Shown piece after piece: positions 9,923-64,000 of a DNA stretch of 64,000 nucleotides. The stretch covers positions 32,882 through 96,881 of the forward strand of contig JAEUMY010000001.1 of the NCBI GenBank assembly GCA_016791265.1, read 5' to 3'. The notes under the pieces were generated by a model that was not told the DNA's origin, did not search any database, and worked only from the letters and a program-made list of their open reading frames with translations. Source of the DNA: Betaproteobacteria bacterium (GTDB lineage Bacteria > Pseudomonadota > Gammaproteobacteria > Burkholderiales > Usitatibacteraceae). The translations under genes were made by a program, and so were the position numbers. Every line of letters begins with the position of its first letter. The first letter of the stretch is position 1.

Positions 9923-10551
9923 GCCGTCGCGTTCGGAAACCGCTCAAGCAACCGGGCTGGGTGCCGAGGCGCCACGCGCCATGCGTTCGGAATGGGCGGA
10001 TTATCGCACAGGGCCTTGTAGACACTCGCGGCGAAGAGGCCGCCATCAGCCATGCCGATGCTCGCGCAACCGGCGAGATACCGGTTGTCACTTTCACGCA
10101 TGTAGGCGGCAAGACCCGCCCAGAGCAGCGTCATCACAGCGCCCGAGCGATGATCCGGATGCACACATGAGCGCCCCACCTCGACCAGCGTATCGCGAAT
10201 ATTCGCAAGGGCGCCAAGCTGAAACTCCGTCTCGGCGTAGTAGCCGCCCGCTGCGCGCGCGGCATGCGGAGGAAGAATTCGATAAGTGCCCACCACTGCG
10301 AGGCTCTCGGTGTCGCGAACAATGAGGTGATCGCAGTAGGCATCGAAGTGGTCGATATCCAGACCTACGCGAGTCGAGGCTTCGGGAAGCCGCGCGCCGA
10401 GTTCGTTCGCGAACACCTGATAGCGCAGCGCCTGCGCCTCCTGCACTTCCGACTCGGAGCCTGCCAGTCCGATGCGATAGCGGCCTGCGCGGCCGCTCGA
10501 CTCCGACGCGCCGCTGTCAGGGCGCAGATGGGAAAGATCTTCTTGACGCAT
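9733..10551 (-). CDS. olsB: GNAT-type N-acyltransferase, ornithine lipid synthase OlsB-like
   Basis: The segments LRYQVFANELGA...DHFDAYCDHLIVRD...GRSCVHPDHRSG match the OlsB / N-acyl amino acid synthase family. The gene is paired with a PlsC-type gene. Confidence 0.8.
   Translation of the reverse strand: MRQEDLSHLRPDSGASESSGRAGRYRIGLAGSESEVQEAQALRYQVFANELGARLPEASTRVGLDIDHFDAYCDHLIVRDTESLAVVGTYRILPPHAARAAGGYYAETEFQLGALANIRDTLVEVGRSCVHPDHRSGAVMTLLWAGLAAYMRESDNRYLAGCASIGMADGGLFAASVYKALCDNPPIPNAWRVAPRHPARLLERFPNATACPIARMPPLIKGYMRVGAHICGEPAWDADFNTADLFLLLPMERMSTRYTQHFRMTPAPQKAA
10195..10206. repeat. GCGAATATTCGC palindrome, copy 1
   Basis: Perfect 12-mer inside olsB, read as A-N-I-R (LANIRDT). 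Confidence 0.95.
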
Positions 10552-10644
10552 GGCACCCCCGTACGACGATACGGGGGCACCTTAGGTCACGACGATGACG
10601 CCGCCGTGACGGTCATGTGAAACTGCCGTGACGGCACTCGGCGA

Positions 10645-11103
10645 TCAGAAGCGAGATACGCGCGTGGCGCCTTGTCCGGACAGCACGCGAACCCGGTCAC
10701 CCACGCGGAATTGCTCGTCGGCCTCCTGCGTCACGGCGATGAGTTTGCCGCTGTCCAGTTTCACCGTGACCTCGATGCCCTTCCGGTCCGCGTTGGACTT
10801 TTCGATGGATTGGCCGATGATTCCGCCCACCACCGCGCCCGCGACGGCGCCGGCGACCGAGCCGCGGCCTTTGCCGACTTCGCTTCCGGCAATGCCGCCC
10901 AGGACGGCGCCCGTCGCCGTGCCAACACCGGTTTCGCTGCCGTCGATGCGCACATCGCGGACGCTTTCCACCACGCCCATGCGCACGGTCTGTTCGCCAC
11001 GCACTTGGCTGCGTGTGTAGTCGCCGCCGCCGAGACCGCGTTGCGCGCAACCACCCAGTGCCACCACGGCGCACACCGCCAAGCCGATTGCTTTCAGGTT
11101 CAT
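10645..11103 (-). CDS. glycine-zipper outer membrane lipoprotein (SlyB/Pcp family)
   Basis: I trimmed the ORF to MNLKAIGLAVCAVVALGGC, a signal peptide plus lipobox. The glycine zipper GAVLGGIAGSEVGKGRGSVAGAVAGAVVGGIIG follows. Confidence 0.85.
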   Translation of the reverse strand: MNLKAIGLAVCAVVALGGCAQRGLGGGDYTRSQVRGEQTVRMGVVESVRDVRIDGSETGVGTATGAVLGGIAGSEVGKGRGSVAGAVAGAVVGGIIGQSIEKSNADRKGIEVTVKLDSGKLIAVTQEADEQFRVGDRVRVLSGQGATRVSRF

Positions 11104-11113
11104 GAGTTTCTCC

Positions 11114-12049
11114 TTACCAAAGCTCGCTGCCAAATGCAGCGCGAAATTGTTCCGCCAGAGAGTCGCGCGTGAAGTGATGGTTCTGTGGACCTCTTTGCGC
11201 GATTTTGATACTGCCGAGGAGTGACGCCAACCGCCCCGTCTTTTCCCAACCCCATTGCGACTCCAATCCGTACAGGATGCCAGCGCGATAGGCATCGCCG
11301 CAACCCGTCGGGTCGGCCACCGCTTCAGGCGGAACCGCCGGAATGGTGATGTCCCGATCCCGGGTGTGAATCACCGAGCCCTGGCCGCCCAGGGTGACGA
11401 TGACCGCTTTGGCCTTGGCGGCGGCTTCGGCGACTCGCCGGCCCAGGCGATCCTCGATCATGCGGGCCTCGTAGTCATTGACCGTCACATAGTCGGCCAG
11501 TTCGATGACTTCGCGCAATTGCGTGGTATCGAAGATGGGTAGCGACTGCCCCGGATCGAAAATGAACGGCGTGCCCCGGGCGCTGAACTCCCGGCAGTGC
11601 TGCACCATCGCGTCGGGCGCGTCGGGTGCGACGATGCCCACACCGATGTCTCGCGCTTCCGAAACGTGGTTCTGCTTCGCCTCCGCCATCGCGCCGGGAT
11701 GAAAGGCGCTGATCTGGTTGTCGTCGATGTCGGTGGTGATGAAGGCCTGGGCGGTATACATGCCGTGAATCGGGCGGACGTGGGTCCGCGCCAGCCCCAG
11801 ATTGTCCAGGCGCTCCGCGTAGGGGCCAAAGTCGACGCCGACGGTCGCCATGATGAGCGGATTGCCGCCCAAAAGTTTCAGGTTGTAGGCGATGTTGCCC
11901 GCGCAGCCGCCAAACTCCTTGCGCAGTTCCGGCACGTGAAACGACACGCTCAGCACATGGATCTGGTCGGGAAGTATGTGCTTCTTGAACTGGTCGCGAA
12001 ACACCATGATGGTGTCGAACGCGAGGGAACCGCAGATCAGGGCGTGCAT
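11114..12049 (-). CDS. PfkB-family carbohydrate/nucleoside kinase (adenosine kinase-like)
   Basis: Start at MHALICGSLAFD. Family motifs GGCAGNIAYNL and DPTGCGDAYRAG are present. Confidence 0.85.
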   Translation of the reverse strand: MHALICGSLAFDTIMVFRDQFKKHILPDQIHVLSVSFHVPELRKEFGGCAGNIAYNLKLLGGNPLIMATVGVDFGPYAERLDNLGLARTHVRPIHGMYTAQAFITTDIDDNQISAFHPGAMAEAKQNHVSEARDIGVGIVAPDAPDAMVQHCREFSARGTPFIFDPGQSLPIFDTTQLREVIELADYVTVNDYEARMIEDRLGRRVAEAAAKAKAVIVTLGGQGSVIHTRDRDITIPAVPPEAVADPTGCGDAYRAGILYGLESQWGWEKTGRLASLLGSIKIAQRGPQNHHFTRDSLAEQFRAAFGSELW

Positions 12050-12150
12050 GGTGACGGGGTCGATGACGGGGAATTGGAGACGGGGAGGGCGGCAGGGATT
12101 ATACGTCCCGACCCCCATGATCAGACGCAAATGGGCATGGGCGAGACATT

Positions 12151-12162
12151 GCGAATATTCGC
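12151..12162. repeat. GCGAATATTCGC palindrome, copy 2
   Basis: Intergenic, between the DUF3426 gene stop and the PfkB-kinase start. It extends to the 16-bp palindrome TTGCGAATATTCGCAA (12149-12164). Confidence 0.95.
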
Positions 12163-12198
12163 AACGTCGCCGCGCCGTCCAGACGCTTCAGGCAACTG

Positions 12199-13089
12199 TC
12201 AGGGGAAGAACAGTTCAACGTGATAGCCGGCGGCATTGCCGAGCTGACTCTCGATGCGCACATTGATGGCCGTGCTGGCCCCGGGCGCCATCCCGTTGGC
12301 GCGAAGCGGCAAGGCGCCGAGATAGGCGTCGGGCGGCAGCACGCGTCGCGCCAGCGTCTGGTTGTTGGTGTCCGTCAGGCTGAGCTCGATATGCGGATAG
12401 TCCTGCACAACGCCGGCCCGATTGGCGATGGTCGCGGTCAGCAGAAAGCGTCCCTTCGTGCCGAGCTCCTCGATCAGGTCGGAACTTTCGACCTTCAGTG
12501 TGCTGATGTCGCGCCCCCAGGGCAAGGTGCAGCCCAAATGCTCGCAGGCCCTTTCCAGATAAGGGCGGAGAGCCGGGTACTGGCTCACCAGTGTGCTGCG
12601 CCACAGATAAGTGATCTGCAGCAGCAGCACCGCCGCTGCGAGAAACGCCAACACCGCCCATCCAATTGACCGAGGCTCGCGGACCGCTTCGCGGGGCAAG
12701 AGCGGGGCGTTGCGGTAGGGCCCGAGCGTGTTCAACCCCGGTGGCCGGGGAGGCAGCGAGGCATCGAGGAAGGCGGGCACCGAAGGCGGCCCGTTGAGGA
12801 CGATACCGGCGCTTGAAGCTGGGGCGCTCGGTGTCGGCGACTCCTCCAGCAGGGGCGCATCCATGGGCGCGTCTGTTGAAAAAGCCGACGGCGCTGTCGT
12901 CGCCGGCTGCGGTACCGGCTGCTGAGAAATCGGGCCGTCTCCCAGCGTGCTATCGATCCGTTGCAGTGATTCGAAGCTGTTGAACACATGCCGGCAGCGG
13001 CCGCACATCACCCGCCCGGAGCGCACATTGAGCTGCTCGGGCGAGACCTTGAACTGGGCCTGGCACTTGGGGCAGGTGGTCAGCAGCAT
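12199..13089 (-). CDS. zinc-ribbon (MJ0042-type) plus DUF3426 membrane protein
   Basis: Start at MLLTTCPKCQAQFKV...CGRCRHVF, a CxxC...CxxC ribbon. A Pro-rich linker, one TM helix and a C-terminal beta domain follow. The gene is downstream of prmA, as in many betaproteobacteria. Confidence 0.75.
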   Translation of the reverse strand: MLLTTCPKCQAQFKVSPEQLNVRSGRVMCGRCRHVFNSFESLQRIDSTLGDGPISQQPVPQPATTAPSAFSTDAPMDAPLLEESPTPSAPASSAGIVLNGPPSVPAFLDASLPPRPPGLNTLGPYRNAPLLPREAVREPRSIGWAVLAFLAAAVLLLQITYLWRSTLVSQYPALRPYLERACEHLGCTLPWGRDISTLKVESSDLIEELGTKGRFLLTATIANRAGVVQDYPHIELSLTDTNNQTLARRVLPPDAYLGALPLRANGMAPGASTAINVRIESQLGNAAGYHVELFFP

Positions 13090-13137
13090 CTCGGGAAAAA
13101 GGGTGGTGGAGAAGAAGCAGGCAGGGAAAACATGCAA

Positions 13138-14037: not shown

Positions 14038-14041
14038 GGGG

Positions 14042-15412: not shown

Positions 15413-15455
15413 CGCCGGCTCTGCCGTCCGGCCGTAGGCAGCCATGTGGCAGCCC

Positions 15456-15905: not shown

Positions 15906-15977
15906 GATGGGTCCTTGTTCTCCGCGCGAACCCTCTGACGGGGTCTGGCGCTGGTCAATCGATGACAACCGGTCGTA

Positions 15978-16457
15978 TCAGACGGCAGCGTGCTGCCGGG
16001 CGAGCGCTGCTTGCAGAGCCAGTTCGTAGGACTGGGCCCCGAAGCCGCAAATCACGCCCACTGCCAAGGGGGCCAGGTAGGAGTGGGATCGAAACGCCTC
16101 GCGGGCGTGAATGTTGGACAGATGCACTTCAATGAACGGCACTGCCACGGCTGCCAACGCATCCCGAAGTGCGACGCTGGTATGCGTCAAACCGGCGGCA
16201 TTGATCAGGATGATGTCGAATCCGCGCGCCTTCGCACCGTGAATTTCGTCGATCAGCGCTGATTCGGCGTTGCTCTGCACGCAATGCACGGCCGCACCGG
16301 ACGCCTTGGCTAGCGCCTCCAGTCGCCGATCGATCTCAGCCAGGGTCACTGAGCCGTAGATTTCCGGCTCGCGCGTGCCCAACAAATTGAGGTTGGGCCC
16401 GTGCAGCACCAAGACTTTGACCGCATTGCCTTGCGGAGCTGCCATGTTTTTAGCCAT
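15978..16457 (-). CDS. aroQ: type II 3-dehydroquinate dehydratase
   Basis: [21 protein letters not shown] signature. The start is uncertain: ATG at 16457 or 16445, or TTG at 16478. Confidence 0.9.
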
Positions 16458-16649
16458 AGGGGCGGCAGTTTGCCGCAAGTTCGGCGAAATTGTCCAGTTG
16501 TCGGGCGCCGTCAGGCGTGCTAGGACATCGCGGCGGGGCGTGGCAAGTTCACTGAAGGAGGGCTGTGGCGTATTTCTGCCAGCCCGTAGTGTGGTGTAAG
16601 GTCAGGCCAGGCGTCGATGCTGTCTGAAATTACATCTTGCAGTGTGTTT

Positions 16650-16661
16650 GCGAATATTCGC
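16650..16661. repeat. GCGAATATTCGC palindrome, copy 3
   Basis: Intergenic, 1 nt beyond the TlpA-like stop codon (16663-16665) and upstream of aroQ. 14-bp form TGCGAATATTCGCA. Confidence 0.95.
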
Positions 16662-16662
16662 A

Positions 16663-17214
16663 TCATTTGGGCGCATTTTCACGGATGATCAATGCCATCT
16701 CCTCATGGCTAAGTTGGCCGATCTTGTTCAGCAGCAAATCGCCTTTGGGGCTGAACACAAGGGTGTGCGGCAGCATGCCCAGGCGATTGCCCATTCGCCG
16801 CGAAAAGGCTACTGCACCTTCGGCGTCAGGCAATAGCGGATAACTGACCGGCGTCTGGGCCTGAAATAAGCGAACTTTATCGGCCGTATCGGCGGCAATA
16901 CCCACAATTTGCACGCCATTCTTTGCATTTTGCCGGAAGAAATTATCGAACATTGGCATTTCTTCCTTGCAAGGCGCGCACCAAGTTGCCCAGAAATTGA
17001 TGAAAAGCAGCTTGCCCTGCCATTGTCCCAGGGACTGCGGCCGGCCTTCCAGGTCAGGAAAACTGGCCGCCAACACGGCGGCATAGTTGACGCCTTCCAT
17101 GCTGGCAGGGGTACCGCCGATCTTGGCGGCGGGTTCTTTGGCGGCGAGCCACATGGCCACTGCTGCGGCAAACAGCAGCGCGCCCAAAAAAATGAATACT
17201 GGCGTCTTCGGCAT
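16663..17214 (-). CDS. TlpA-family thiol:disulfide oxidoreductase (thioredoxin fold, membrane anchored)
   Basis: N-terminal TM helix and the FWATWCAPCKEEMP CxxC motif. Confidence 0.85.
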   Translation of the reverse strand: MPKTPVFIFLGALLFAAAVAMWLAAKEPAAKIGGTPASMEGVNYAAVLAASFPDLEGRPQSLGQWQGKLLFINFWATWCAPCKEEMPMFDNFFRQNAKNGVQIVGIAADTADKVRLFQAQTPVSYPLLPDAEGAVAFSRRMGNRLGMLPHTLVFSPKGDLLLNKIGQLSHEEMALIIRENAPK

Positions 17215-17236
17215 CGCGGCCTGGTCGTCTGCGTGG

Positions 17237-17704: not shown

Positions 17705-18106
17705 ATGCGCTACATCCTGCTGGCAATTCTAATCGGCTTTCCCCTGGCCGAAGCAGCCCTTCTGGTCACCGTGGGTGAAGGCCATGCCCTGTGGGTGATT
17801 GCATGGCTCGTCATGGCGGCGATCATCGGTGTCGCTCTCATCAAGGAAGCGCGATTTGCGCTCATCTCGCGGTTGGCCAGCTCCCTGGCCCAAGGGCGCT
17901 TCTCGCTCTCCGCGTTGATCGACAGCGGTCGCACCGTGCTGGCAGGCCTGCTGCTGATTTTTCCAGGACTTATGAGCGATGTCATGGCGCTCGTCCTGTT
18001 GCTGTTGCCCGTTCGCTCCCGAGAGATCGAGTTGCGGTCCGCCTACGCGCCTCATTTCACCCCGCGTTCCGGCGTCATCGAGGGCGAGTATCGCCACGAG
18101 CGCTGA
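17705..18106 (+). CDS. fxsA: FxsA family membrane protein
   Basis: Start at MRYILLAILIGFPLAE. The LLIFPGLMSDVMALVLLLP motif is present. Confidence 0.85.
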   Translation: MRYILLAILIGFPLAEAALLVTVGEGHALWVIAWLVMAAIIGVALIKEARFALISRLASSLAQGRFSLSALIDSGRTVLAGLLLIFPGLMSDVMALVLLLLPVRSREIELRSAYAPHFTPRSGVIEGEYRHER

Positions 18107-19019
18107 GCGCCTCAGCCACTTCGGCGCAAGACAATCCGGCCAACAGGTCGGCCACTGTCGGAAACGCCAGCCGAACGCCCAACTCATCCTTCAGCCGCCG
18201 ATTGGACAAGCGGCGCGATTCGCGCAGAAACGAAAGCAAGGCCGGCGGCAAGGTCTTCTCGGCTTCGCCGCGGCTGATGCGCCTTGGCCGGGGCAGGCCA
18301 AATCGATCCGCGACCAGATCAAAATAGTGGCCCATCCTCAATGGCGCGTCGTCGCAACAGTGATAGTTGCGCCCGTTTGATCCCCGAAACAGCGCGGCCA
18401 CCGTGGCCCGCGCCAAGTCATCGGCATGGATGTGATTGCTGTAGCTGTCTTCGTCTGCCCGCAGCGCCGGCGTGCCCGCCGTCAATCTGGCGAGCGGCAG
18501 ACGGTCTTTTGCATAAATGCCGGGCGCGCGCAGCACGCACTGCGAGCGCATGGCCGGCGCAGAGCGCATCCATCGCCTGAGCGCCCGCTCCGCATCGACC
18601 CGTCGCTTGGCGCGGTCGTTGGTGGGGCGAAGCGGCCGCGCCTCCGTCACCCACTCACCGCCGCAGTCGCCGTAAACACCGGTGGTGCTGAGGTAGACCA
18701 GACGCCGCGAACGCACGCCATGCGAATATTCGCGTCCGGAAGGGGTCTTAGAGAGAGCCGCGAGAAGGTTGCGCGTGCGCGTATCGACACGAAGGTGCGC
18801 GGGCGGCGGCGCCAGATGGATGACGCAGTCGGCCAACGCGGCGGCGCGCGCCAGGGTCGCCCTGTCGTCCAGGTCGCCGATCAGGGGCACCACACCCAGC
18901 GTGCGCAGTCGGTCGGCCTTCGCCGGATCGCGAATTAGGCCGTAGAGCCGGAAGCGCTTTGCGAGCAGTGGGGCCAGGCGCGCCGCCACATCCCCGAAGC
19001 CCACGATCAGTATTCGCAT
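18075..19019 (-). CDS. NAD-dependent epimerase/dehydratase (SDR family)
   Basis: Start at MRILIVGFGDVA (Rossmann fold). Its 3' end converges with and overlaps fxsA by 32 nt. Confidence 0.8.
   Translation of the reverse strand: MRILIVGFGDVAARLAPLLAKRFRLYGLIRDPAKADRLRTLGVVPLIGDLDDRATLARAAALADCVIHLAPPPAHLRVDTRTRNLLAALSKTPSGREYSHGVRSRRLVYLSTTGVYGDCGGEWVTEARPLRPTNDRAKRRVDAERALRRWMRSAPAMRSQCVLRAPGIYAKDRLPLARLTAGTPALRADEDSYSNHIHADDLARATVAALFRGSNGRNYHCCDDAPLRMGHYFDLVADRFGLPRPRRISRGEAEKTLPPALLSFLRESRRLSNRRLKDELGVRLAFPTVADLLAGLSCAEVAEALSARGDTRPR
18722..18733. repeat. GCGAATATTCGC palindrome, copy 4
   Basis: Inside the SDR epimerase gene, read as E-Y-S (GREYSHG). Confidence 0.95.
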
Positions 19020-19088
19020 CGATTGAGTATAGTGTGAAACTCGCGCAAGGCCGCCGCCCCCAACCCCGAAGTGCATTGAAGTCCGCTC

Positions 19089-20141
19089 ATGAACGCCGCC
19101 GTCGAAACCCCGCCCGCCACCACCTCCCGCGCCGTCCGCCTCCCCAGCGGCAACACCTTCCAGGTTGACGTCGGCGAGACCGTGCTCGCCGCCGCCATGC
19201 GTCAGAACATCGGGCTCCCCTACGGGTGCCGCAACGGCGCGTGCGGCTCATGCAAGGGCACCATCGTGTCAGGTGAGGTGGACTACGGCGCATATCAGGC
19301 GCGCACGCTCACTGATGCGGAAAAGGCGCAGGGCAAGGCGCTTTTCTGCTGCGCCAAACCCAAAACCGATCTTGTGCTCGATGTGCGTGAAATCAGCGCG
19401 GGCGACATTCAGGTTCGCACGTTGCCCTGCCGCGTCGAGAAGATCGACAAACTCGCGCACGATGTCGTGGCGCTGAAACTCCGGCTGCCAGCCAACGAGC
19501 GCCTGCAATTTCGCGCCGGGCAGTACATCGACATTCTCTTGAAAGACGGCAAGCGACGCAGCTTCTCCATGGCCAACGCGCCGCATGCCGACGAGTTCAT
19601 CGAGCTGCACATTCGCGCCGTTCCCGGGGGCACGTTCTCGCAGCACGTCATGCACGAGATGAAGGAGCGCGCGATCCTCCGCTTCGAAGGCCCGCTGGGC
19701 AGCTTCTGCCTCAACGAGGATTCCGACAAGCCCATCATCTTCATGGCGGGCGGCACGGGCTTCGCGCCGATCAAGGCCATCATCGAGCATGCGCTGCACG
19801 CCCACATCGACCGCCAGATGGTGCTGTACTGGGGGGCTCGCTCGCTGCGCGATCTGTATCTGCCCGACCTGCCGGCAAAATGGCAACGCGAATATTCGCA
19901 TCTCACATTCATTCCCGTGCTGTCCGATCCGCTGCCCGAGGACCATTGGCAGGGTCGCACCGGGCTGGTCCATCAAGCCATCCTGGACGACTTCTCCGAC
20001 ATGGCGGGCTACGAGGTCTATGCCTGCGGCGCCCCCATCATGATCGAGGTGGGCCAGCGGGCATTTGCGGCGCGGGGCCTGCCGCCGGAAGCATTCTTCG
20101 CAGACTCGTTCACCTACGCCGCCGCACCCGCCGGCGTCTGA
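19089..20141 (+). CDS. 2Fe-2S ferredoxin / FNR-type NAD(P)H oxidoreductase (AscD/Fre-like)
   Basis: Plant-type cluster motif CRNGACGSCK...C, an FAD motif RSFSMA, and an NAD motif MAGGTGFAP. Confidence 0.85.
   Translation: MNAAVETPPATTSRAVRLPSGNTFQVDVGETVLAAAMRQNIGLPYGCRNGACGSCKGTIVSGEVDYGAYQARTLTDAEKAQGKALFCCAKPKTDLVLDVREISAGDIQVRTLPCRVEKIDKLAHDVVALKLRLPANERLQFRAGQYIDILLKDGKRRSFSMANAPHADEFIELHIRAVPGGTFSQHVMHEMKERAILRFEGPLGSFCLNEDSDKPIIFMAGGTGFAPIKAIIEHALHAHIDRQMVLYWGARSLRDLYLPDLPAKWQREYSHLTFIPVLSDPLPEDHWQGRTGLVHQAILDDFSDMAGYEVYACGAPIMIEVGQRAFAARGLPPEAFFADSFTYAAAPAGV
19888..19899. repeat. GCGAATATTCGC palindrome, copy 5
   Basis: Inside the ferredoxin-reductase gene, read as E-Y-S (QREYSHL). 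Confidence 0.95.
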
Positions 20142-20707: not shown

Positions 20708-20719
20708 GCGAATATTCGC
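20708..20719. repeat. GCGAATATTCGC palindrome, copy 6
   Basis: Intergenic, occupying -15..-4 relative to the argC ATG (20723). 14-bp form. Confidence 0.95.
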
Positions 20720-23592: not shown

Positions 23593-23604
23593 GCGAATAT
23601 TCGC
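23593..23604. repeat. GCGAATATTCGC palindrome, copy 7
   Basis: Intergenic, 19 nt upstream of the response-regulator ATG and just before its GGAGAG SD. Confidence 0.95.
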
Positions 23605-31458: not shown

Positions 31459-31470
31459 GCGAATATTCGC
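31459..31470. repeat. GCGAATATTCGC palindrome, copy 11
   Basis: Occupies -14..-3 relative to the hemC start codon (31454-31456, minus strand). Confidence 0.95.
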
Positions 31471-39218: not shown

Positions 39219-39219
39219 G

Positions 39220-39660: not shown

Positions 39661-39704
39661 CCAACCGGCGCTGCGCGGATCGCGCGATGCTCGCGGAGGA
39701 TGCA

Positions 39705-41387: not shown

Positions 41388-41399
41388 GCGAATATTCGC
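41388..41399. repeat. GCGAATATTCGC palindrome, copy 15
   Basis: Intergenic between convergent genes, 9 nt before the terminator hairpin. 14-bp form. Confidence 0.95.
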
Positions 41400-54192: not shown

Positions 54193-54753
54193 ATGCTTCC
54201 CGTCAATCTCACCAACCACTTCCTCATCGCCATGCCCGGCATGGTCGATCCGTATTTTTCCAAAACCCTGACGTTCATCTGCGAGCACAACGACAAGGGC
54301 GCGCTCGGCCTGGTCGTCAACAAGCCCATCGACGTGACCCTGGGCAATCTCTTCGAGCAGGTCGAGATCCCGCTGGATGACCAAGCGCTGTCCGCGCAAT
54401 CGCTCTACTTTGGCGGCCCGGTGCAGGTGGATCGCGGGTTCGTCTTGCATGAGCCGCATGGCGTGTGGAGTTCCTCGCTCAAGGTTGGGCCGCACCTCGC
54501 GCTCACCACCTCGAAGGACATTCTTGAGGCGATGGCCAAGGGTGAAGGCCCGCGCCGCCAGTTGATCACGCTGGGCTACGCCGGCTGGTCGGCGGGGCAG
54601 CTGGAGGAAGAAATCAAGAAGAACGGCTGGCTCACCGTCGAGGCCGATCCCGAGACCATTTTCGGCCTCTCTGCGGAAGCGCGATTGGAAGGGGCCATGG
54701 CGAAGCTCGGACTGAACTTCGGCAATCTCTCCGATCAGGCGGGGCACGCGTGA
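54193..54753 (+). CDS. algH: YqgE/AlgH-family protein
   Basis: LTNHFLIAMPGMVDPYFSKTLTFICEHN signature. Confidence 0.9.
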   Translation: MLPVNLTNHFLIAMPGMVDPYFSKTLTFICEHNDKGALGLVVNKPIDVTLGNLFEQVEIPLDDQALSAQSLYFGGPVQVDRGFVLHEPHGVWSSSLKVGPHLALTTSKDILEAMAKGEGPRRQLITLGYAGWSAGQLEEEIKKNGWLTVEADPETIFGLSAEARLEGAMAKLGLNFGNLSDQAGHA

Positions 54754-55187
54754 CCGGGGGATCGGGCACCGTTCTCGCCTTCGATTTTGGCGAGAAGCGC
54801 GTCGGCGTCGCCACGGGCGCCGCGAATATTCGCATTGCGCATCCACTGGAAACCATCCACGCCGAATCGAACGATGACCGCTTTACGCGCATCGCGACCC
54901 TGCTGGCCGAGTGGCAACCCACGCAATTGGTCGTGGGGCTGCCCACGCACATCGACGGCACGGAACATGAGCTGACCCGGCTTGCGCGCAAGTTCGCCAA
55001 TCGGCTCAATGGCCGCTTCAACCTTCCAGTCGCGCTGGTTGACGAGCGGCTCACATCCGCCGAAGCCGAAGAACGCTTGCGCGAAGTGGGCATCACCGGT
55101 CGCGGGCAGAAGGCGCATGTGGATGCCGTGGCCGCGCAATCCATTCTGCAATCCTGGTTCGATCAACATCATGACCAAACTACCTGA
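54750..55187 (+). CDS. ruvX: Holliday junction resolvase-like protein RuvX (YqgF)
   Basis: LAFDFGEKRVGVA...VVGLP...DERLTS, the YqgF pattern. Confidence 0.9.
   Translation: MTGGSGTVLAFDFGEKRVGVATGAANIRIAHPLETIHAESNDDRFTRIATLLAEWQPTQLVVGLPTHIDGTEHELTRLARKFANRLNGRFNLPVALVDERLTSAEAEERLREVGITGRGQKAHVDAVAAQSILQSWFDQHHDQTT
54822..54833. repeat. GCGAATATTCGC palindrome, copy 21
   Basis: Inside ruvX, read as A-N-I-R (GAANIRIA). Confidence 0.95.
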
Positions 55188-55689: not shown

Positions 55690-55694
55690 ATCAC

Positions 55695-57936: not shown

Positions 57937-57985
57937 TCGTCCGCGCTGCGACTCTCAAGCAATATTCTCAGCACCCGTCGGCAAT

Positions 57986-58528
57986 TCAGTCCGTTGCCAA
58001 AATGCGCACCAGATTGATGTGCGTCTGACCGCGCTTGGGTTGCACGTTCACCAGGCGGAAGTTGTTGGGTTTGCCGGCCTTGAAAACGTACTCGCCTTTC
58101 TTGCCGCGATCATCATTGCAGTCCAATGATGTCTTGTTGCCGGACTTGTCGCGCGGCGCCTTCTTCGGGCCGGGGTTGGGCGCGTCGACGCTGCAGTCGA
58201 TGATCTCGCCGTATTCGCCAAGCGCCTTGCGGTAGTAGGCGGCCGTCTTCTCGGCGGACTCATTCGTCATCAATTGCAGTGCTGCAATCTTGAAACCGAA
58301 CAGCCCTCCCCAGGCGGCGAAAGTGAGGCCGCTGCCTTCATCGCCGTCGTCCTTGCGGCGCACGGCACCGGGCATGATGGGGAGCCCGACGCTCTTGGCG
58401 CTGGCCTCGTTTTCAAGTACCAGTCCGGCGCTCAAAGACTTCTTCTCCTCGGCATGGCCAGGGGCGGCGCCCAGCAGCAGTCCGGTGGCGAGTGCGGTGA
58501 GCAGTACGGCGAGGTGGGTGCGGATCAT
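57986..58528 (-). CDS. exported hypothetical protein
   Basis: Signal peptide MIRTHLAVLLTALATGLLLGAAPGHA. The protein is Lys-rich, has 2 Cys, and I recognise no family. Confidence 0.55.
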   Translation of the reverse strand: MIRTHLAVLLTALATGLLLGAAPGHAEEKKSLSAGLVLENEASAKSVGLPIMPGAVRRKDDGDEGSGLTFAAWGGLFGFKIAALQLMTNESAEKTAAYYRKALGEYGEIIDCSVDAPNPGPKKAPRDKSGNKTSLDCNDDRGKKGEYVFKAGKPNNFRLVNVQPKRGQTHINLVRILATD

Positions 58529-58647
58529 GGGCCCTCCCGGGGCGGCGTTTGGAGTGCCAGGAGCGTAGCGCGAGCGCGCCGTGTCCGCGAGGGGGTGGGC
58601 GACGGATTGCAGAAAGCACGGCCCGGAATGCAGGGGGCGCGGCGACT

Positions 58648-58653
58648 TATAAT
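58648..58653 (+). promoter_or_regulatory. candidate -10 box TATAAT upstream of prlC
   Basis: Perfect TATAAT 29 nt before the ATG at 58682. There is no clear -35. Confidence 0.25.
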
Positions 58654-58681
58654 CACGGCCTCACTCCCCGCTGATGCCGCC

Positions 58682-60742
58682 ATGAATCCCTTGCTCGATT
58701 TTTCCGGTCTTCCCCGTTTCAATGCTGTTCGCGCCGAGCATGTGCAGCCGGCCGTCGAACAACTCATCATCGAAGGCCGTGCGGCCGTCGAGGCTGCGGT
58801 GGTGGAAACGACGCCGCCCACCTGGGACAATTTCGTGCGGCCGCTGGATGATGCCGGCGAGCGTTTGTCCCGCGCCTGGGGTCAGGTGTCGCATCTCAAC
58901 GCGGTGATGAATTCGCCCGAGCTGCGCGATGCGTACAACGCCATGCTGCCGGTGCTGACCCAGTACTACACCGAGCTGGGCCAGGACGAACGCCTCTATG
59001 CCAAGTACAAGGCGCTCCGCGCCTCCAGCGAATATTCGCAGTTGTCCGATGCGCAGAAGAAAACGCTGGAAAACGAGCTGCGTGATTTCCGCCTCTCCGG
59101 CGCGGAGTTGCCCGAGGCCGAGAAGGCCCGCTTCAAGGCCTTGCAGGAAGAGCTCTCCACGCTTTCATCGCGCTTCAATGACAACGTGCTGGATGCGACC
59201 AACGACTTCGCGCTGTACGTCGCTGACGCACACCATCTGGCTGGCCTGCCCGACGATGTGAAGCAGGTGGCCAAGGAGGCGGCGGAGAAGGACGGCAAGC
59301 CCGGCTGGAAGCTCACGCTGCACATGCCTTGCTACCTGCCGGTGATGCAGTACGCCGATCATCGGCCGCTGCGCGAGCAGCTCTATCGCGCCTATGTGAC
59401 CCGTGCGTCCGACCAGTCGCTGGCGGACAAAGCGAAGGACTGGGACAACACTGCGAATATTCGCAATCTGCTGAAGCTCCGCCAGGAGTCAGCCGAGCTG
59501 CTGGGCTTTGCCAATTTCGCCGAGCTGTCGCTCGCCACCAAAATGGCGCGCACGCCTGCGGAGGTGGTGGGCTTCCTGCGCGAGCTGGGGGCCAAGGCCA
59601 AACCCTATGCCGAGCGCGACATGCGGGAACTGACGGATTACGCCCGGCGCGAGCTCGGCATGCCCGATGTGCAGGCCTGGGACATTCCCTACGTGAGCGA
59701 GAAACTGCGTGTGGCCAAATATGCGTTCTCCGATCAAGAGGTGAAGCAGTACTTCCCCGAGCCGGTGGTGCTGGACGGCATGTTCCGCGTGGTGAAGTCC
59801 ATCTTCGGCATCGAGGTGCGTCCAGCCACGGCCGAGACCTGGCATGCTGATGTGCGCTTCTTCGACGTGCTGAACGAGGCGGGCGAGCGCATCGGCCAGT
59901 TCTTCCTTGATCTCTACGCCCGCGACAAGAAGCGCGGCGGTGCGTGGATGGATGATGTGATGGCTCGCCGTCGCGTGGGCAACGCCGTGCAGATTCCGGT
60001 GGCGTACCTCACCTGCAATTTCTCCGCACCGGTGGGTGGCAAGCCGGCACTGTTCACCCACGACGAAGTCATCACCCTGTTCCACGAGTTCGGCCACGGG
60101 CTGCATCACCTGCTGACCCAGGTCGATGAGCTGGCCGTGTCCGGCATCAGCGGCGTGGAATGGGATGCGGTCGAACTGCCCAGCCAGTTCATGGAGAACT
60201 TCTGCTGGGAGTGGGAGGTGCTGAAGCACATGACGAAACACGTCGATTCCGGTGAGTCGCTACCGCGCGCGCTGTTCGACAAGATGCTGGCCGCCAAGAA
60301 TTTCCAGAATGGCATGGGCTTCGTGCGGCAATTGGAGTTCGCGCTCTTCGACATGCGCCTGCATGCCGACTTTGACGTGTTGAATGGCGACATGCTGGCG
60401 CTGCTGGCCGATGTGCGCCGCGAGGTGGCGGTCATCAAGCCGCCCGAGTGGAATCGCTTCCCGCATCAGTTCGGACACATTTTCGGGGGTGGCTACGCAG
60501 CGGGCTACTACAGCTACAAGTGGGCGGAAGTGCTGTCCGCCGACGCCTACGCCGCGTTCGAGGAGCATCCCGGGGGCGTGCTGAACCGCGAGGTCGGCCG
60601 CAAGTTTCAGATGGAGGTGCTGGCAGCCGGCGGCGCGCGCCCGGCCATGGCGTCATTCAAGGCGTTTCGCGGGCGCGAGCCGTCCACCGCCGCGCTCATC
60701 AGGCACAATGGAATGGATGAACCGCTCGCCATGGCCGCCTGA
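58682..60742 (+). CDS. prlC: oligopeptidase A (M3 family zinc metallopeptidase)
   Basis: Start at MNPLLDFSGLPRF. The zinc motif HEFGHGLHH is present. The track ORF (58274) begins upstream inside the neighbouring gene. Confidence 0.9.
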   Translation: MNPLLDFSGLPRFNAVRAEHVQPAVEQLIIEGRAAVEAAVVETTPPTWDNFVRPLDDAGERLSRAWGQVSHLNAVMNSPELRDAYNAMLPVLTQYYTELGQDERLYAKYKALRASSEYSQLSDAQKKTLENELRDFRLSGAELPEAEKARFKALQEELSTLSSRFNDNVLDATNDFALYVADAHHLAGLPDDVKQVAKEAAEKDGKPGWKLTLHMPCYLPVMQYADHRPLREQLYRAYVTRASDQSLADKAKDWDNTANIRNLLKLRQESAELLGFANFAELSLATKMARTPAEVVGFLRELGAKAKPYAERDMRELTDYARRELGMPDVQAWDIPYVSEKLRVAKYAFSDQEVKQYFPEPVVLDGMFRVVKSIFGIEVRPATAETWHADVRFFDVLNEAGERIGQFFLDLYARDKKRGGAWMDDVMARRRVGNAVQIPVAYLTCNFSAPVGGKPALFTHDEVITLFHEFGHGLHHLLTQVDELAVSGISGVEWDAVELPSQFMENFCWEWEVLKHMTKHVDSGESLPRALFDKMLAAKNFQNGMGFVRQLEFALFDMRLHADFDVLNGDMLALLADVRREVAVIKPPEWNRFPHQFGHIFGGGYAAGYYSYKWAEVLSADAYAAFEEHPGGVLNREVGRKFQMEVLAAGGARPAMASFKAFRGREPSTAALIRHNGMDEPLAMAA
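59028..59039. repeat. GCGAATATTCGC palindrome, copy 22
   Basis: Inside prlC, read as E-Y-S (SSEYSQL). Confidence 0.95.
59453..59464. repeat. GCGAATATTCGC palindrome, copy 23
   Basis: Inside prlC, read as A-N-I-R (NTANIRNL). 14-bp form. Confidence 0.95.
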
Positions 60743-60791
60743 TCGGATGTGCTGAAGAGAAAGCGGCCCGAATTCACTGGAGGAGGTGATC

Positions 60792-61430: not shown

Positions 61431-62194
61431 AGCTCGTCACCTGGAATGTCAACAGTCTCAACGTGCGCCTGCCGCACGTCGAGGACTGGTTGAAGGCGCA
61501 CCAACCGGAAGCCCTCTGTCTGCAGGAAATCAAGATGGAGGACGCCAGGTTTCCGCGCGAGGCCATCGAGTCGCTCGGCTATCACGTGGTGTTCGATGGT
61601 CAGAAGACGTACAACGGCGTCGCCATCATCGCCAAGTCGAGGCCGGAGGATGTCGCGCGTGGCATTGCGGGTTTTGCCGACGAGCAAAGGCGCGTCATCG
61701 CGGCGACCGTCAACGGTGTGCGCGTGGTGTGTGTTTATGTTCCCAACGGCCAGAGTCTTGATTCGGACAAGTATCAGTACAAGCTCGCCTGGCTGAAGGC
61801 GCTCACCGGCTGGCTGGGCGGTGAGTTGAAGCTTTATCCAGATCTCGCGCTTCTTGGCGACTACAACATCGCGCCGGAAGATCGCGATGTGCATGACCCC
61901 AAGGCGTGGGAGGGTCAGGTGCTGGTGAGTGAGCCTGAACGCGCGGCATTTCGCGGCTTGCAGGCGCTGGGGCTCGCCGACAGCTTTCGTCTCTTCGATC
62001 AACCGGAGAAGAGCTTCACGTGGTGGGATTACCGCATGAATGGCTTCAAGCGCAATCTTGGGCTTCGCATTGACCATGTGATGCTGTCCGCCTCCCTGGT
62101 GGCGCGGTGCCAGGCGTCGTCCATCGATATCGAGCCGCGCAAACTCGAACGCCCCTCGGATCACACCCCCGCCTTCGCCGTCGTCGCCGACTGA
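61427..62194 (+). CDS. xthA: exodeoxyribonuclease III
   Basis: GTG start. MKLVTWNVNSLNVR...CLQEIK...GDYNIAP...DHVM...SDHTP motifs. Confidence 0.95.
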   Translation: MKLVTWNVNSLNVRLPHVEDWLKAHQPEALCLQEIKMEDARFPREAIESLGYHVVFDGQKTYNGVAIIAKSRPEDVARGIAGFADEQRRVIAATVNGVRVVCVYVPNGQSLDSDKYQYKLAWLKALTGWLGGELKLYPDLALLGDYNIAPEDRDVHDPKAWEGQVLVSEPERAAFRGLQALGLADSFRLFDQPEKSFTWWDYRMNGFKRNLGLRIDHVMLSASLVARCQASSIDIEPRKLERPSDHTPAFAVVAD

Positions 62195-62204
62195 CCTGCT
62201 CGCC

Positions 62205-64000
62205 ATGCCCATCCAGCAGCGCGATCTTTTCTCGTCCACGTCCATCCGCGCCGCGGGCGGTTTCGGCAAGGTCGTGTCGGGCAGTGAGCGGCCGCTGCGC
62301 GATCTGGTGAAACGCGCCGCCGTGGCCACCGATGCCGATGTCGCGATGCTGTCTTTCATTGATGGCGACATCGAGTGGTGCAAGTGCTGCGAAGGTGCGG
62401 CGGTCGGCGAGTGGTCGCGCTCGGCCAGCTTGTGGGCGCCGCTGCGCGAGGGCATTGACGGTGAGAACACGCCCATCAATCCCGACGTGCGAGTCATGCC
62501 GGCGCTGGGCGATCTTTCGGGTTGGCGCAACCATCCGCTGCGTGCCGAAGCGCCCGAGCTCACCTCGGCTGCGATGGCCCCGGTCGTGGATGGCGATGGG
62601 CTGGTGGCGGGCATGCTCGCCGTGTTCAGCCTTGGCCCTCGCGAATATTCGCAACCGGAGCGGGAGGCGCTGGCCAATCTCGCGCGGCTGGTCTCCACGC
62701 GCCTGATGTTGCAACGTTCGTCAGCGGACGACACCAAGCCGCGCGCCCAGCCGCGAACGGACGCGCTGCTCCAACCCGCGCGCCAGCGCGCGCGTGCGGA
62801 GTCAGCGCCGCCGCCCGCGCCGATGGCGGCGGACGCGGAGCAGATCGATCAAGGCGCGCTGGCAAGCGAGCTCGCGCGGCTCAACCAGCAACTTGAAGGA
62901 GAGATGGCGAGTCGGCAGGATGCGCAGTCGCAGCTCGAGCGCGAGCGTTCGTTCTCGGATGCCGCCATCGCGGCGCTGCCGGGCGCGTTCTATATGTTCA
63001 ATCAGGCCGGTCGGATGCTCCGCTGGAACCGCAATTTCACTGACGCTTCAGGCTATTCCGATGCCGAGGTGACTGAAAAGAAGCCCGTCGACTTCGTCAT
63101 TCCGGAGGATCAGTCGCAAGTCGTCAAGGCCATTGCCCGCGTGTTCAGCGAGCGGCGCGAAGTGTCGATCGAGGCGCGTTTCCTCCACAAGTCGGGTGAA
63201 GTGGCGCCCTATCTTTTCACCGGGCGGCCGGCCGAGCTCAACGGCGAGACCGTGCTCATCGGCGTCGGTCGAGACATCAGCGACCGCAAACGCGCCGAGC
63301 AGCAGCTTTTGCAAACCAAGGAGCGCCTGCATCTAGCGCTCACCGGGTCCGGTCTCGCCATGTGGGACTGGGATCTCAGCACCAACACCGTCTACTTCAA
63401 CGAAGGCTGGGGATCGCTGCTCGGTGCGGCTGCGCGCGAAGCCGTCCATCGCGGCACCGAGGTTTTCGACTGGAACCACCCGGACGACAAGGAGATTTTC
63501 CGCAGCGCGCTGAATGCGGCCATGAAGGGCGACTCGGAGTTCTTCACCGCCGAGTACCGTGTGCAGAATGACCGGGGCGAGTGGGTCTGGATCCACACCC
63601 GCGGAAAGGTCACCGAACGAGATGACCAGGGACTCGCGACGCGCATGACCGGCGTGTCGGAAAACATCACCGAGCGCAAGGTTGCCGAGGAGCGCGCCGA
63701 GTTTCTCGCCACACGCGATCCGCTCACAGGCCTGCCCAACCGCATGCTGCTGAATGATCGGCTGGAGCAGGGCATCGCCGCCGCCGCGCGGTCGAAGAAG
63801 AAGCTTGCCTTCATGTTCATCGACCTGGATCGGTTCAAGTTCATCAACGACTCGCTGGGCCACCACATTGGCGACGAACTCTTGAAGCAGGTGGCGACGC
63901 GGCTGGCGTCCTGCGTCCGCGCCACCGACACCGTCGCCCGACTGGGCGGCGACGAGTTCGCGGTGATCCTCGCGGACTTGAAGGACGAGCAGGGCGTGAG
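62205..64000 (+). CDS. GAF-like / PAS / PAS / GGDEF signalling protein (partial, continues past window end)
   Basis: My own translation from the ATG at 62205 gives MPIQQRDLFSS.... Two PAS modules (...FYMFNQAGRMLRWN..., ...WDWDLSTNTVYFNEGW...) are followed by the GGDEF domain (DPLTGLPNR...RLGGDEF). There is no stop in the window, so it is absent from the ORF track. Confidence 0.85.
   Translation, partial: MPIQQRDLFSSTSIRAAGGFGKVVSGSERPLRDLVKRAAVATDADVAMLSFIDGDIEWCKCCEGAAVGEWSRSASLWAPLREGIDGENTPINPDVRVMPALGDLSGWRNHPLRAEAPELTSAAMAPVVDGDGLVAGMLAVFSLGPREYSQPEREALANLARLVSTRLMLQRSSADDTKPRAQPRTDALLQPARQRARAESAPPPAPMAADAEQIDQGALASELARLNQQLEGEMASRQDAQSQLERERSFSDAAIAALPGAFYMFNQAGRMLRWNRNFTDASGYSDAEVTEKKPVDFVIPEDQSQVVKAIARVFSERREVSIEARFLHKSGEVAPYLFTGRPAELNGETVLIGVGRDISDRKRAEQQLLQTKERLHLALTGSGLAMWDWDLSTNTVYFNEGWGSLLGAAAREAVHRGTEVFDWNHPDDKEIFRSALNAAMKGDSEFFTAEYRVQNDRGEWVWIHTRGKVTERDDQGLATRMTGVSENITERKVAEERAEFLATRDPLTGLPNRMLLNDRLEQGIAAAARSKKKLAFMFIDLDRFKFINDSLGHHIGDELLKQVATRLASCVRATDTVARLGGDEFAVILADLKDEQGV
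62641..62652. repeat. GCGAATATTCGC palindrome, copy 24
   Basis: Inside the N-terminal GAF-like region of the GGDEF gene, read as E-Y-S (GPREYSQP). Confidence 0.95.

Follow-up and report, generated by a model that had tools for sequence, protein, structure and literature searches.

The window, as we call the whole 64,000-nucleotide stretch of DNA analysed here, contains 24 perfect copies of the 12-bp palindrome GCGAATATTCGC. An exact search located them at the same 24 starts listed in an earlier reading made from the letters alone (the sequence-only reading), and nowhere else in the window. Together with two one-mismatch copies, they are distributed as follows (strands are those of the genes):

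10195-10206, perfect copy in an Acetyltransf_5-like gene (9733-10551, minus strand), reading A-N-I-R
12151-12162, perfect copy in the spacer between a PfkB-like kinase gene (11114-12130, minus strand) and a DUF3426 gene (12199-13137, minus strand), with a TATAAT box about 47 nt downstream
16650-16661, perfect copy in the spacer between a DHquinase_II gene (15978-16478, minus strand) and a thioredoxin-like gene (16663-17214, minus strand), both identified from synteny with L001-L004
18722-18733, perfect copy in an epimerase-like gene (18075-19076, minus strand), reading E-Y-S
19888-19899, perfect copy in a Fer2/FAD-binding oxidoreductase gene (19089-20141, plus strand), reading R-E-Y-S-H
20708-20719, perfect copy ending 3 nt upstream of the ATG of a semialdehyde-dehydrogenase-like gene (20723-21643, plus strand)
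23593-23604, perfect copy within the 5' leader of a response-regulator gene (23624-24313, plus strand), downstream of a conserved TATAGT box and ahead of the ribosome-binding site
25546-25557, perfect copy in a sensor histidine-kinase gene (24314-25945, plus strand), reading R-I-F-A
26050-26061, perfect copy overlapping the ATG (26048) of a DUF1579-like secreted-protein gene, reading M-R-I-F-A
29037-29048, perfect copy in a hemX-like gene (28641-29702, minus strand), reading A-N-I-R
31459-31470, perfect copy lying 2 nt before the probable start codon of hemC (minus strand); the Porphobil_deam domain begins past the Met that follows it
33374-33385 and 35765-35776, perfect copies in a DUF3683/FAD-oxidase/CCG gene (32099-35977, plus strand), each reading A-N-I-R
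33789-33800, one-mismatch copy GCGAATATTCGG, deviating at the outermost base
39389-39400, perfect copy in a HIT-domain gene (39184-39660, plus strand), in the E-Y-S frame
41388-41399, perfect copy in the spacer between convergent genes (39687-41360, plus strand; gshB, 41457-42404, minus strand), part of the 18-bp palindrome GATGCGAATATTCGCATC
42243-42254, perfect copy in the glutathione synthetase gene gshB (41457-42404, minus strand), reading A-N-I-R
45666-45677, perfect copy in a Mur-ligase (mpl-like) gene (44602-45960, plus strand), reading Q-R-I-F-A
46739-46750, one-mismatch copy GCGAATATTCGT, deviating at the outermost base
48544-48555, perfect copy in an RNB (RNase II/R-like) gene (47847-49736, plus strand), reading S-E-Y-S-H
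48567-48578, perfect copy in the same RNB gene, 11 bp past the preceding one, reading A-N-I-R
48909-48920, perfect copy in the same RNB gene, reading A-N-I-R-I
54822-54833, perfect copy in a ruvX/yqgF-like gene (54750-55187, plus strand), reading A-N-I-R
59028-59039, perfect copy in a peptidase M3 gene (58274-60742, plus strand), reading S-E-Y-S-Q
59453-59464, perfect copy in the same peptidase M3 gene, reading A-N-I-R
62641-62652, perfect copy in a GAF-PAS-GGDEF gene (62082 to beyond 63998, plus strand), reading R-E-Y-S-Q

No copy appeared in any of 100 dinucleotide-preserving shuffles of the window, and the Markov expectation ranged from 0.0024 at order 0, close to the 0.002 per 64 kb estimated by the sequence-only reading, to 0.008 at order 4, computed with motif copies masked. 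Set against the 24 copies found, these values place the observed/expected ratio above 3,000 (approximately 3,000-10,000 across orders 0-4), at a density of about 375 copies per Mb, so that the Markov comparison which that reading had proposed, run here on the window, bears out the excess. Near-copies comprised two sequences with one mismatch and three with two; 3.5 with up to two mismatches are expected by chance. GAATATTC was the sole outlying palindromic 8-mer (observed/expected 82; at most 2.8 for the others), and outside the word both AATATT and GAATATTC occurred at chance level, 24 of their totals of 30 and 27, respectively, lying within it. In this one window, copies were spaced more evenly than random (CV 0.65 vs 0.96, P = 0.016). 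Bases 1-10194 held none where 4.5 were expected (P = 0.011); this copy-free block is a lower-GC polysaccharide region adjoining a tRNA gene.

According to the gene map, 18 of the 24 copies (75%) are coding and 6 non-coding, matching the three quarters previously assigned to genes. Across L001-L004, 11 of 22 copies were found in non-coding DNA, which accounts for 11% of the sequence (P = 6e-6). Coding copies use all three frames at 9:6:3 (ANIR > EYS > RIFA), a usage that tracks codon rarity, and non-coding copies have no fixed place with respect to promoters, being located around -60, in a 5' leader or between convergent genes.

The site extends beyond the dodecamer. Of the half-sites, 62-69% have T/A at -1/+1; fainter preferences continue out to +/-4, and those from -1 to -4 were replicated in three datasets, which gives a symmetric footprint of about 20 bp, caTT-GCGAATATTCGC-AAtg. 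In agreement with the sequence-only reading, copies have unrelated flanks once past the first few bases, with no similarity beyond +/-4, but the flanks are non-random. Overall, 124 perfect and 19 one-mismatch copies were counted; the outermost base is the deviating position in 11 of the 19, the near-invariant core is the ten-base CGAATATTCG, and no deamination signature was found among the one-mismatch variants. The symmetric flanks point to a dimeric DNA-binding reader rather than to a 4-8-bp methyltransferase site, and from the perfect two-fold symmetry and the fading of information over about 20 bp we infer that duplex DNA would be read by a symmetric protein dimer. This footprint, the non-coding enrichment and the sharp taxonomic limit described below are additions to the sequence-only account.

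GCGAATATTCGC is a genome-wide signature word of one genus-level clade of uncultured soil Burkholderiales. Its presence beyond a single assembly, about which the sequence-only reading had asked, was established in four independent sister-species assemblies (Logan SRR31327517, GCA_033764435.1, GCA_031394355.1 and JGI 3300015615), which carry 190-330 copies per Mb, with 4-7 copies per 21 kb in each, in DNA only 73-78% identical to the window; in GCA_031394355.1, it occurs on at least 18 contigs. Since the word is common to independent assemblies, an artefact is excluded. Neither the 12-mer nor its 10-mer core was found in the nearest sister lineage (AccC 88-90% identical, syntenic) or in 844 kb from more distant relatives. 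In a scan of 185,579 species genomes, other taxa among the matches listed showed one match per stretch (L011-L117 were examined for multiple copies).

At orthologous sites, outgroups have unrelated sequence of equal length (for instance, TGGGATAGTCTT), indicating that copies arose in place, by point substitution and not by insertion. This equality of length, together with flanks that are unrelated beyond +/-4, supports the earlier view that the copies are not MITE, REP or IS termini. The substitutions that create the word alter amino acids and bring in minor codons: REYSH at 19888 stands where outgroups have RDHPN, KEHPN or KDYPN, ANIRI at 48909 where 34 outgroup homologues have ANLRH, and QRIFA at 45666 where ARILA or ARIVA is found, the outgroup peptides being ASTRR or APVKR at 42243 (gshB) and EPHPE or DMHPE at 48544. 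A new lineage-specific copy was detected at L003:13609. The force involved acts on the DNA sequence itself, and is strong enough to change encoded residues and to force the use of minor codons.

Existing copies are also retained far better than adjacent sequence. Indeed, among genomes 73-78% identical, 54 of 85 aligned copies were kept at 12/12, compared with 5.4 expected from control 12-mers (approximately 10-fold), which answers affirmatively the question of conservation at orthologous positions in sister species. The copy at 19888 is intact in L001, L002 and L004 (one mismatch in L003), that at 25546 is intact in the same three within flanks 70-74% identical, that at 10195 has a perfect ortholog at L001:15213 and a one-mismatch ortholog in L002, and that at 18722 has an orthologous copy at L003:6739. 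Among non-coding copies, 20708 is kept at L001:4628 and L002:4544 and missing, with indels, in L003 and L004; 23593 is kept in L001, L002 and L003 and missing in L004 and L005 despite a retained promoter box; and the spacer holding 12151 contains a copy in L001, L002 and L003, although the surrounding DNA is unalignable.

Like HIP1 (GCGATCGC) and the alternate cyanobacterial palindromes, GCGAATATTCGC is a single short palindrome running through genes and spacers at hundreds of copies per Mb (300-2700 for HIP1; PMC4390886). HIP1, too, spreads through substitution and keeps its orthologous positions (PMC5861425), has its one-base deviations mostly at outer bases (PMC4390886), and shares palindromic flank extensions, lineage specificity and the arms GCGA...TCGC. 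However, HIP1 is 8-10 bp long, against 12 bp with a 20-bp footprint, its hosts are cyanobacteria instead of Burkholderiales, and its observed/expected ratios are 15-300, against more than 3,000. Unlike HIP1, GCGAATATTCGC has an A/T-only core in a 64% G+C genome, contains no GATC or CGATCG-type methyltransferase site, and its inner core is not enriched by itself.

Further parallels are offered by the DUS of Neisseriaceae and the USS of Pasteurellaceae, which likewise show about one copy per 1-3 kb, a strong core with weaker flank preferences, over-representation in non-coding DNA and, within genes, at protein-tolerant places (PMC2817400), evolution by point mutation with long-term positional stability, spacing evener than random, and a family- or genus-level distribution. 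These sequences are asymmetric and occur in both orientations, whereas GCGAATATTCGC is a perfect palindrome, without similarity to any DUS dialect or USS and, unlike Neisseria DUS, without an inverted-pair terminator arrangement; biased uptake is a demonstrated property of DUS and USS and a conjectural one of GCGAATATTCGC. The chromosome-organising sites parS, Noc NBS, SlmA SBS and MatP matS are also conserved 12-16-bp palindromes located within and between genes, but a genome has about 10-100 of them, confined to certain regions, whereas it would hold GCGAATATTCGC well over 1,000 times, and the word appears on many contigs. REP/BIME elements and MITEs are repeated palindromic sequences as well, but they exceed it in length, are imperfect and extragenic, and insert as units, in contrast to a word with no shared flanks that lies mostly in genes and arises by substitution. 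A genuine MITE, quite unlike GCGAATATTCGC, was observed in L005.

The most likely role, which we favour tentatively, would be that of a self-DNA tag in natural transformation, amplified by biased uptake or recombination. Fragments with the word would be preferentially bound, taken up or recombined, so that alleles gaining it would spread and alleles losing it would be replaced, a form of molecular drive; purifying selection on proteins would prune it from constrained codons, and such pruning would produce the spacer excess and the frame bias. Molecular drive is accepted for DUS and USS, and has lately been proposed for HIP1. Uptake sequences shape proteomes likewise (PMC2817400), and HIP1, which is conserved within and between ORFs (PMC5861425), is now tied to transformation (bioRxiv 10.1101/2024.09.10.611283; 10.64898/2026.06.24.733823). 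Counting against a tag, the window, which encodes only housekeeping functions, yielded no gene for competence, a pilin receptor or any other reader. The asymmetry of known uptake sequences also counts against it, as does the one characterised receptor, ComP, being to our knowledge a monomer. A palindrome would be no less suited to an HTH-type dimer in the cytoplasm than to an uptake receptor, and direct selection for a chromosomal function would predict lasting conservation of position just as well.

An alternative that we consider rather unlikely is that GCGAATATTCGC is a dense site for an abundant, sequence-specific nucleoid or chromosome-organising protein, an HTH-type dimer comparable to ParB/parS, Noc/NBS, SlmA/SBS or MatP/matS, its copies being kept by direct selection for chromosome structure. 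Such dimers read perfect palindromes with half-sites of about 10 bp, in keeping with the graded 20-bp footprint, and orthologous conservation and even spacing fit as well; for HIP1, chromosome structure is the function favoured in PMC5861425. Nevertheless, with more than 1,000 sites, the fitness gained from any one of them would be too small for selection to overcome constraints on amino acids and codons or to assemble new sites through several substitutions, and no candidate protein was identified. Moreover, known organiser sites are all 10-100 times less dense than the word is in the window.

Doubtful to a similar degree is the ratchet put forward for HIP1 by Elhai (2015), according to which an orphan DNA methyltransferase would mark an inner sequence, after which short-patch or mismatch repair dependent on methylation would turn near-matches into the complete word, leaving it as a by-product. 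The outer arms shared with HIP1 and the clustering of one-mismatch copies at the first or last base, as reported for HIP1 (PMC4390886), agree with this proposal. On the other hand, ten near-invariant bases and information over some 20 bp contrast with methyltransferase sites of usually 4-8 bp, AATATT and GAATATTC have a chance-level frequency elsewhere, and the enriched unit is at least 10 bp. Inner AATATT speaks in favour, being a known type II site, that of SspI, from a Sphaerotilus, also Burkholderiales. The lack of a deamination signature does not, and screening 320 kb of clade DNA for motifs revealed no DNA methyltransferase, weak evidence given that this is less than 10% of a genome. A methyltransferase by-product is weakened.

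It is very improbable that a global transcription factor controlling a very large regulon uses the copies as its operators: the palindrome has operator size and several copies lie near start codons or promoters (20708, 23593, 26050, 31459 and 12151), but most are coding, in all frames, non-coding ones lack a fixed promoter position, and, unlike in real regulons, all 12 bases are identical at each copy. Mobile-element termini or remnants (MITE, REP, IS), an artefact of assembly or adapters, or an accident of composition, for which repetition alone would speak, have a negligible probability, being refuted by shuffles and Markov models that give about zero copies, by occurrence in five independently assembled genomes 22-27% divergent, by dissimilar flanks and equal-length word-free sites, and by retention.

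Whereas the self-DNA tag is a tentative role, GCGAATATTCGC itself belongs with HIP1, DUS and USS as a lineage-specific genomic signature word, and its sequence, host and footprint are all new. The proposal of a dispersed, non-mobile, HIP1/DUS-like word in a betaproteobacterial genome is sustained by independent assemblies, substitution origin and orthologous conservation, and its presumed novelty by full-text literature searches, in which no description of GCGAATATTCGC as a genomic repeat was found. It adds a new example to the rare class formed by HIP1 and the Neisseria and Haemophilus DNA-uptake sequences.

An exact search of the window recovered 24 perfect copies of the dodecamer GCGAATATTCGC (hereafter the word; bare coordinates are copy starts in the window), equivalent to 375 per Mb, at the same 24 starts that the sequence-only reading had listed. 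None appeared in any of 100 dinucleotide-preserving shuffles of the window, and Markov models fitted to the window after masking of the word copies predicted between 0.0024 (order 0) and 0.008 (order 4) copies, an observed/expected ratio (O/E) of approximately 3,000-10,000; the earlier rough estimate of about 0.002 copies was therefore correct. The distribution of copies around the consensus is very sharp, with two one-mismatch and three two-mismatch near-copies in the window; chance would yield 3.5 with at most two mismatches. Among palindromic 8-mers, GAATATTC was the sole outlier (O/E 82; next best, 2.8). Almost all instances of AATATT (30), GAATATTC (27), and the 10-mer CGAATATTCG (26) lie inside the full word, and the inner core showed no enrichment of its own.

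The genes of the window are ordinary housekeeping genes, including accBC, prmA, hemCDXY, gshAB, ruvX, pyrB, and genes encoding an mpl-like ligase, an RNase II/R-like (RNB) protein, a photolyase, a peptidase M3, two-component systems, and a GGDEF protein. Two further genes stand in succession:

Window 36132-39218, + strand: 1028-aa protein with Sortilin/Vps10-type repeats
Window 39687-41360, + strand: 557-aa protein with no Pfam match, following the Sortilin/Vps10-type gene

The AccC protein of the window is 94-96% identical to proteins of uncultured "Burkholderiales/Betaproteobacteria bacterium" MAGs, and syntenic 21-kb loci were available from independent projects: L001 (Logan SRR31327517), L002 (GCA_033764435.1), L003 (GCA_031394355.1), and L004 (JGI 3300015615). 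These contain 7, 6, 4, and 5 perfect copies, respectively (190-330 per Mb), the word being the commonest 12-mer in L001 and the first or second in L002-L004. The window and the four loci are 73-78% identical to one another in aligned DNA and thus represent five different species. Since the word recurs in independent projects and in genomes this divergent, an adapter, assembly, or engineering artefact is excluded.

The word has sharp taxonomic limits. When the 14-mer TGCGAATATTCGCA was scanned over one genome per species (185,579 species), at least 107 stretches matched. Among the stretches listed, about one quarter came from two MAGs of the clade (in one case, from at least 18 contigs) and contained the 12-mer 2-7 times within 8 kb or less, whereas every other taxon listed had a single match per stretch, as chance predicts. 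The nearest sister lineage has the same gene order (AccC 88-90% identical; G+C approximately 0.58), and neither the 12-mer nor its 10-mer core was found in approximately 85 kb of its DNA (L005, L318-L322, and L238). No copy was detected in 844 kb from more distant relatives found via the RNB protein, and no comparably over-represented palindrome was present in those word-free loci. A metagenome scan with the same protein returned relatives at up to 62% identity, which were used as outgroups, and no new clade members; a scan of viral contigs revealed none rich in the word. A possible "dialect" of the word in sister locus L005 was rejected, the repeated 12-mers there being the terminal inverted repeat (TIR) of an unrelated MITE-like element with two copies of about 170-210 bp and TIRs CTAGTACTGTGACTCAGAAATAGCGGA... 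and ...TTTCTGAGTCACAGTACTAG:

L005:806-970: MITE-like element, one copy
L005:13364-13582: MITE-like element, other copy

A candidate analogous word in Usitatibacter, CGAGCTCG, with 10 occurrences per 21 kb (L009 and L010), proved unremarkable (O/E 2.7, order-2 Markov).

Comparison of orthologous sites revealed how copies arise. At alignable sites, genomes without a copy carry unrelated sequence of equal length at the same place, as where four genomes have GCGAATATTCGC, L003 has GCGAATAGTCGC, and outgroups have TGGGATAGTCTT or TGGGATGATCCC; because the word-free sites are equal in length, copies must have been built by point substitution and not by insertion. Within genes, this has changed proteins: compared with outgroups, REYSH replaces RDHPN, KEHPN, or KDYPN; ANIRI replaces ANLRH (34 outgroup homologues); QRIFA replaces ARILA or ARIVA; and SEYSH replaces EPHPE. 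Copies also impose the minor codons AAT, ATT, TAT, CGA, and ATA, and 3 of the 16 ATA codons in window genes lie inside word copies. New copies are still being made, as seen at L003:13609, where a perfect copy faces unrelated sequence in the other genomes and a half-site in L004. Once present, copies are retained: conservation at orthologous positions in sister species, proposed earlier as a check, was found at all 12 positions in 54 of the 85 copy-by-genome comparisons in aligned DNA, versus 5.4 predicted from control 12-mers of those alignments. The spacer that follows the DUF3426 gene shows essentially no conservation among the window, L001, L002, and L003 other than the copy. What operates here is a force on the DNA sequence itself, one that generates copies through substitution and keeps them.

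Copies are dispersed over genes and spacers. Three quarters are intragenic in the window (6 of 24 lie in non-coding DNA), as the sequence-only reading had stated. In L001-L004, according to the gene calls supplied with those loci, 11 of 22 copies are not fully within a gene, against 11% non-coding DNA (P = 6e-6). The intragenic copies of the window are read as ANIR (9), EYS (6), or RIFA (3), the order expected from codon rarity. Spacing is more even than random (CV 0.65 versus 0.96; longest gap, 5.9 kb; P = 0.016, a single modest test). Bases 1-10194, of lower G+C (0.605), contain no copies versus 4.5 expected (P = 0.011). Polysaccharide-biosynthesis genes (Glycos_transf_4, Polysacc_synt_2) occupy the first 7 kb and end at the only Rfam match of the window:

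Window 7212-7288, - strand: tRNA-Arg(CCG) gene, at the edge of the polysaccharide block (window 1-7200)

This word-free block of lower G+C might represent a surface-polysaccharide island subject to horizontal exchange.

Non-coding copies occupy no constant position relative to promoters. Copy 12151 (counterparts L001:13249 and L002:13252) has a TATAAT box about 47 nt downstream, and copy 23593 (counterparts L001:3137, L002:3050, and L003:1736) lies in the 5' leader of a response-regulator gene, between an upstream -10 box (TATAGT) and the ribosome-binding site; these promoter-like boxes are conserved, even in genomes without the copy. Only copy 41388 lies between convergent genes. Three copies adjoin start codons, against about 0.2 by chance (a rough estimate, not a computed value): 20708 ends 3 nt before an ATG, 26050 overlaps one, and 31459 precedes the likely hemC ATG by 2 nt. 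No Shine-Dalgarno sequence was seen between copy 20708 and its ATG, and the other two leave no room for one. Inside the RNB gene, two perfect copies just 11 bp apart (window 48544-48578) lie within a longer inverted repeat, TGAAGGTG...CACCTTCA, and a third copy is found at 48909.

The anatomy of the site was resolved in pooled clade DNA (320 kb), which contains 124 perfect and 19 one-mismatch copies. In 11 of the latter the mismatch falls on the outermost base, versus 17% expected; because deviations concentrate there, the 10-mer CGAATATTCG is a near-invariant core. Outside the word, three separate datasets agree on flank preferences that are mirrored on the opposite side.

Base preferences flanking the word (position; preferred base; information)
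-1; T; about 1 bit
-2; T; 0.2-0.3 bit
-3; A, rarely T; 0.1-0.4 bit
-4; C; 0.10-0.16 bit
beyond -6; no preference; no information

The full footprint is a symmetric sequence of about 20 bp, caTT-GCGAATATTCGC-AAtg (as a 20-mer, CATTGCGAATATTCGCAATG), whose information fades gradually outwards. This is the profile that a symmetric protein dimer would produce, suggesting a dimeric reader of the duplex. The sites of type II methyltransferases, of 4-8 bp, are much shorter.

The properties of the word match point by point those of the class of hyper-abundant genomic words. As with HIP1, the highly iterated palindrome of cyanobacteria, a palindrome reaches hundreds or more per Mb against composition-aware expectation, its single copies, scattered through coding and non-coding sequence, stem from substitution and not transposition, orthologous positions are conserved above neutral expectation, and one-base deviations are biased to the first or last base. 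HIP1 itself occurs at 300-2700 per Mb, and both outer-base deviations and palindromic extensions are described for it (PMC4390886), as is conservation within and between ORFs (PMC5861425). As with the DNA uptake sequences (DUS/USS) of Neisseriaceae and Pasteurellaceae, a 9-12-mer is hyper-abundant throughout the genome in an entire lineage, about once every 1-3 kb, is in excess in non-coding DNA, and sits in tolerant protein parts and frames, variable residues being those replaced; DUS/USS likewise have a point-mutational origin, are accommodated by proteomes, and are in excess in non-coding DNA (PMC2817400). The HIP1/DUS-like class proposed from the sequence alone is thus supported. The word is, however, neither system. 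HIP1 is GCGATCGC or a close derivative in cyanobacteria, and here the word is different, the host belongs to Burkholderiales, the footprint is longer, and no self-enriched methyltransferase-type site is embedded. DUS/USS, for which ComP is the uptake receptor and ComN/PpdA have been proposed, are asymmetric, occur in both orientations, and in Neisseria often form inverted pairs at terminators, whereas the word is a perfect palindrome, and biased uptake, demonstrated for DUS/USS, is a candidate property here. Full-text literature searches found the exact 12-mer or 10-mer only in synthetic oligonucleotides and in one operator predicted for Shewanella, TGGCgaAtaTtcGCCA, and never as a genomic repeat, and a topical search brought up no account of a word of this kind among Betaproteobacteria other than Neisseriaceae, bearing out the claim of novelty. 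The word is therefore a real, previously undescribed, lineage-specific signature word, kin of the HIP1/DUS/USS class.

Regarding its cause, well over 1,000 copies are expected per genome, each with little fitness effect, so selection on individual sites is a less plausible explanation than a drive acting on every copy. Among drives of this type, the best documented operates in natural transformation, where tagged DNA is preferentially taken up or recombined, and HIP1 has been linked to transformation in recent work (10.1101/2024.09.10.611283; 10.64898/2026.06.24.733823). The word would accordingly serve as a self-DNA tag, favouring uptake or recombination of tagged DNA in natural transformation, a reading that we put forward tentatively, at somewhat short of even chances. 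Dense binding by a nucleoid protein with sequence specificity is favoured by the palindrome, the spacing, and the conservation, but the density and the protein-altering gains speak against it, making it unlikely. Equally improbable is a repair ratchet linked to methylation, a mechanism put forward for HIP1, which the outer-base deviations would fit; a recognised length of at least 10 bp and a core without enrichment of its own argue against it, and the same length weakens the methyltransferase role suggested by the sequence-only reading. No DNA methyltransferase was found among the window genes, and a catalytic-motif screen of the 320 kb of clade DNA found none, which is weak negative evidence; its three candidates were unrelated proteins (patatin, TctB, and cytochrome c). 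The remaining probability belongs to a mechanism not yet described.

A mobile element, repeat-family terminus, regulon operator, RNA motif, and chance are ruled out. Copies share no flanks, are not inserted as a unit, and are not restricted to extragenic DNA, so they are not REP, MITE, or IS termini, as had been anticipated; operators of a transcription-factor regulon are inconsistent with 75% intragenic copies, variable promoter positions, and identity of all copies; and an RNA hairpin or terminator with a stem of only 4 bp, in any orientation and frame, was likewise discarded. Restriction-site avoidance or enrichment was rejected with the core alone at chance level. A Chi-like site was set aside, since Chi sites lack symmetry, follow the direction of replication, and show only modest enrichment.

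To our knowledge, hyper-abundant genomic words are known from three lineages only, Neisseriaceae, Pasteurellaceae, and cyanobacteria, and their origin (selection versus molecular drive), and for HIP1 even the function, has been debated for some 30 years. The word adds an independent example: a perfect 12-bp palindrome whose centre is A/T-only although the genome is G+C-rich, and whose graded 20-bp footprint suggests a dimeric reader. Its copies hold a clear record of construction by amino-acid-changing substitutions, which makes it a clean system to measure the strength of the driving force. The phylogenetic boundary is sharp, five species about 75% identical in DNA having the word and the next lineage none despite conserved gene order, and the question of the reader protein is therefore tractable by comparative genomics. 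Returning to uptake and recombination, the word might be an independently evolved palindromic self-recognition signal with a dimeric receptor of about 20-bp footprint, in a soil Burkholderiales genus and recent enough to be absent from the syntenic sister lineage, a possibility that we regard as less likely than not; if true, a simple comparison of gene presence and absence could reveal the reader protein and, through it, the origin of such words.
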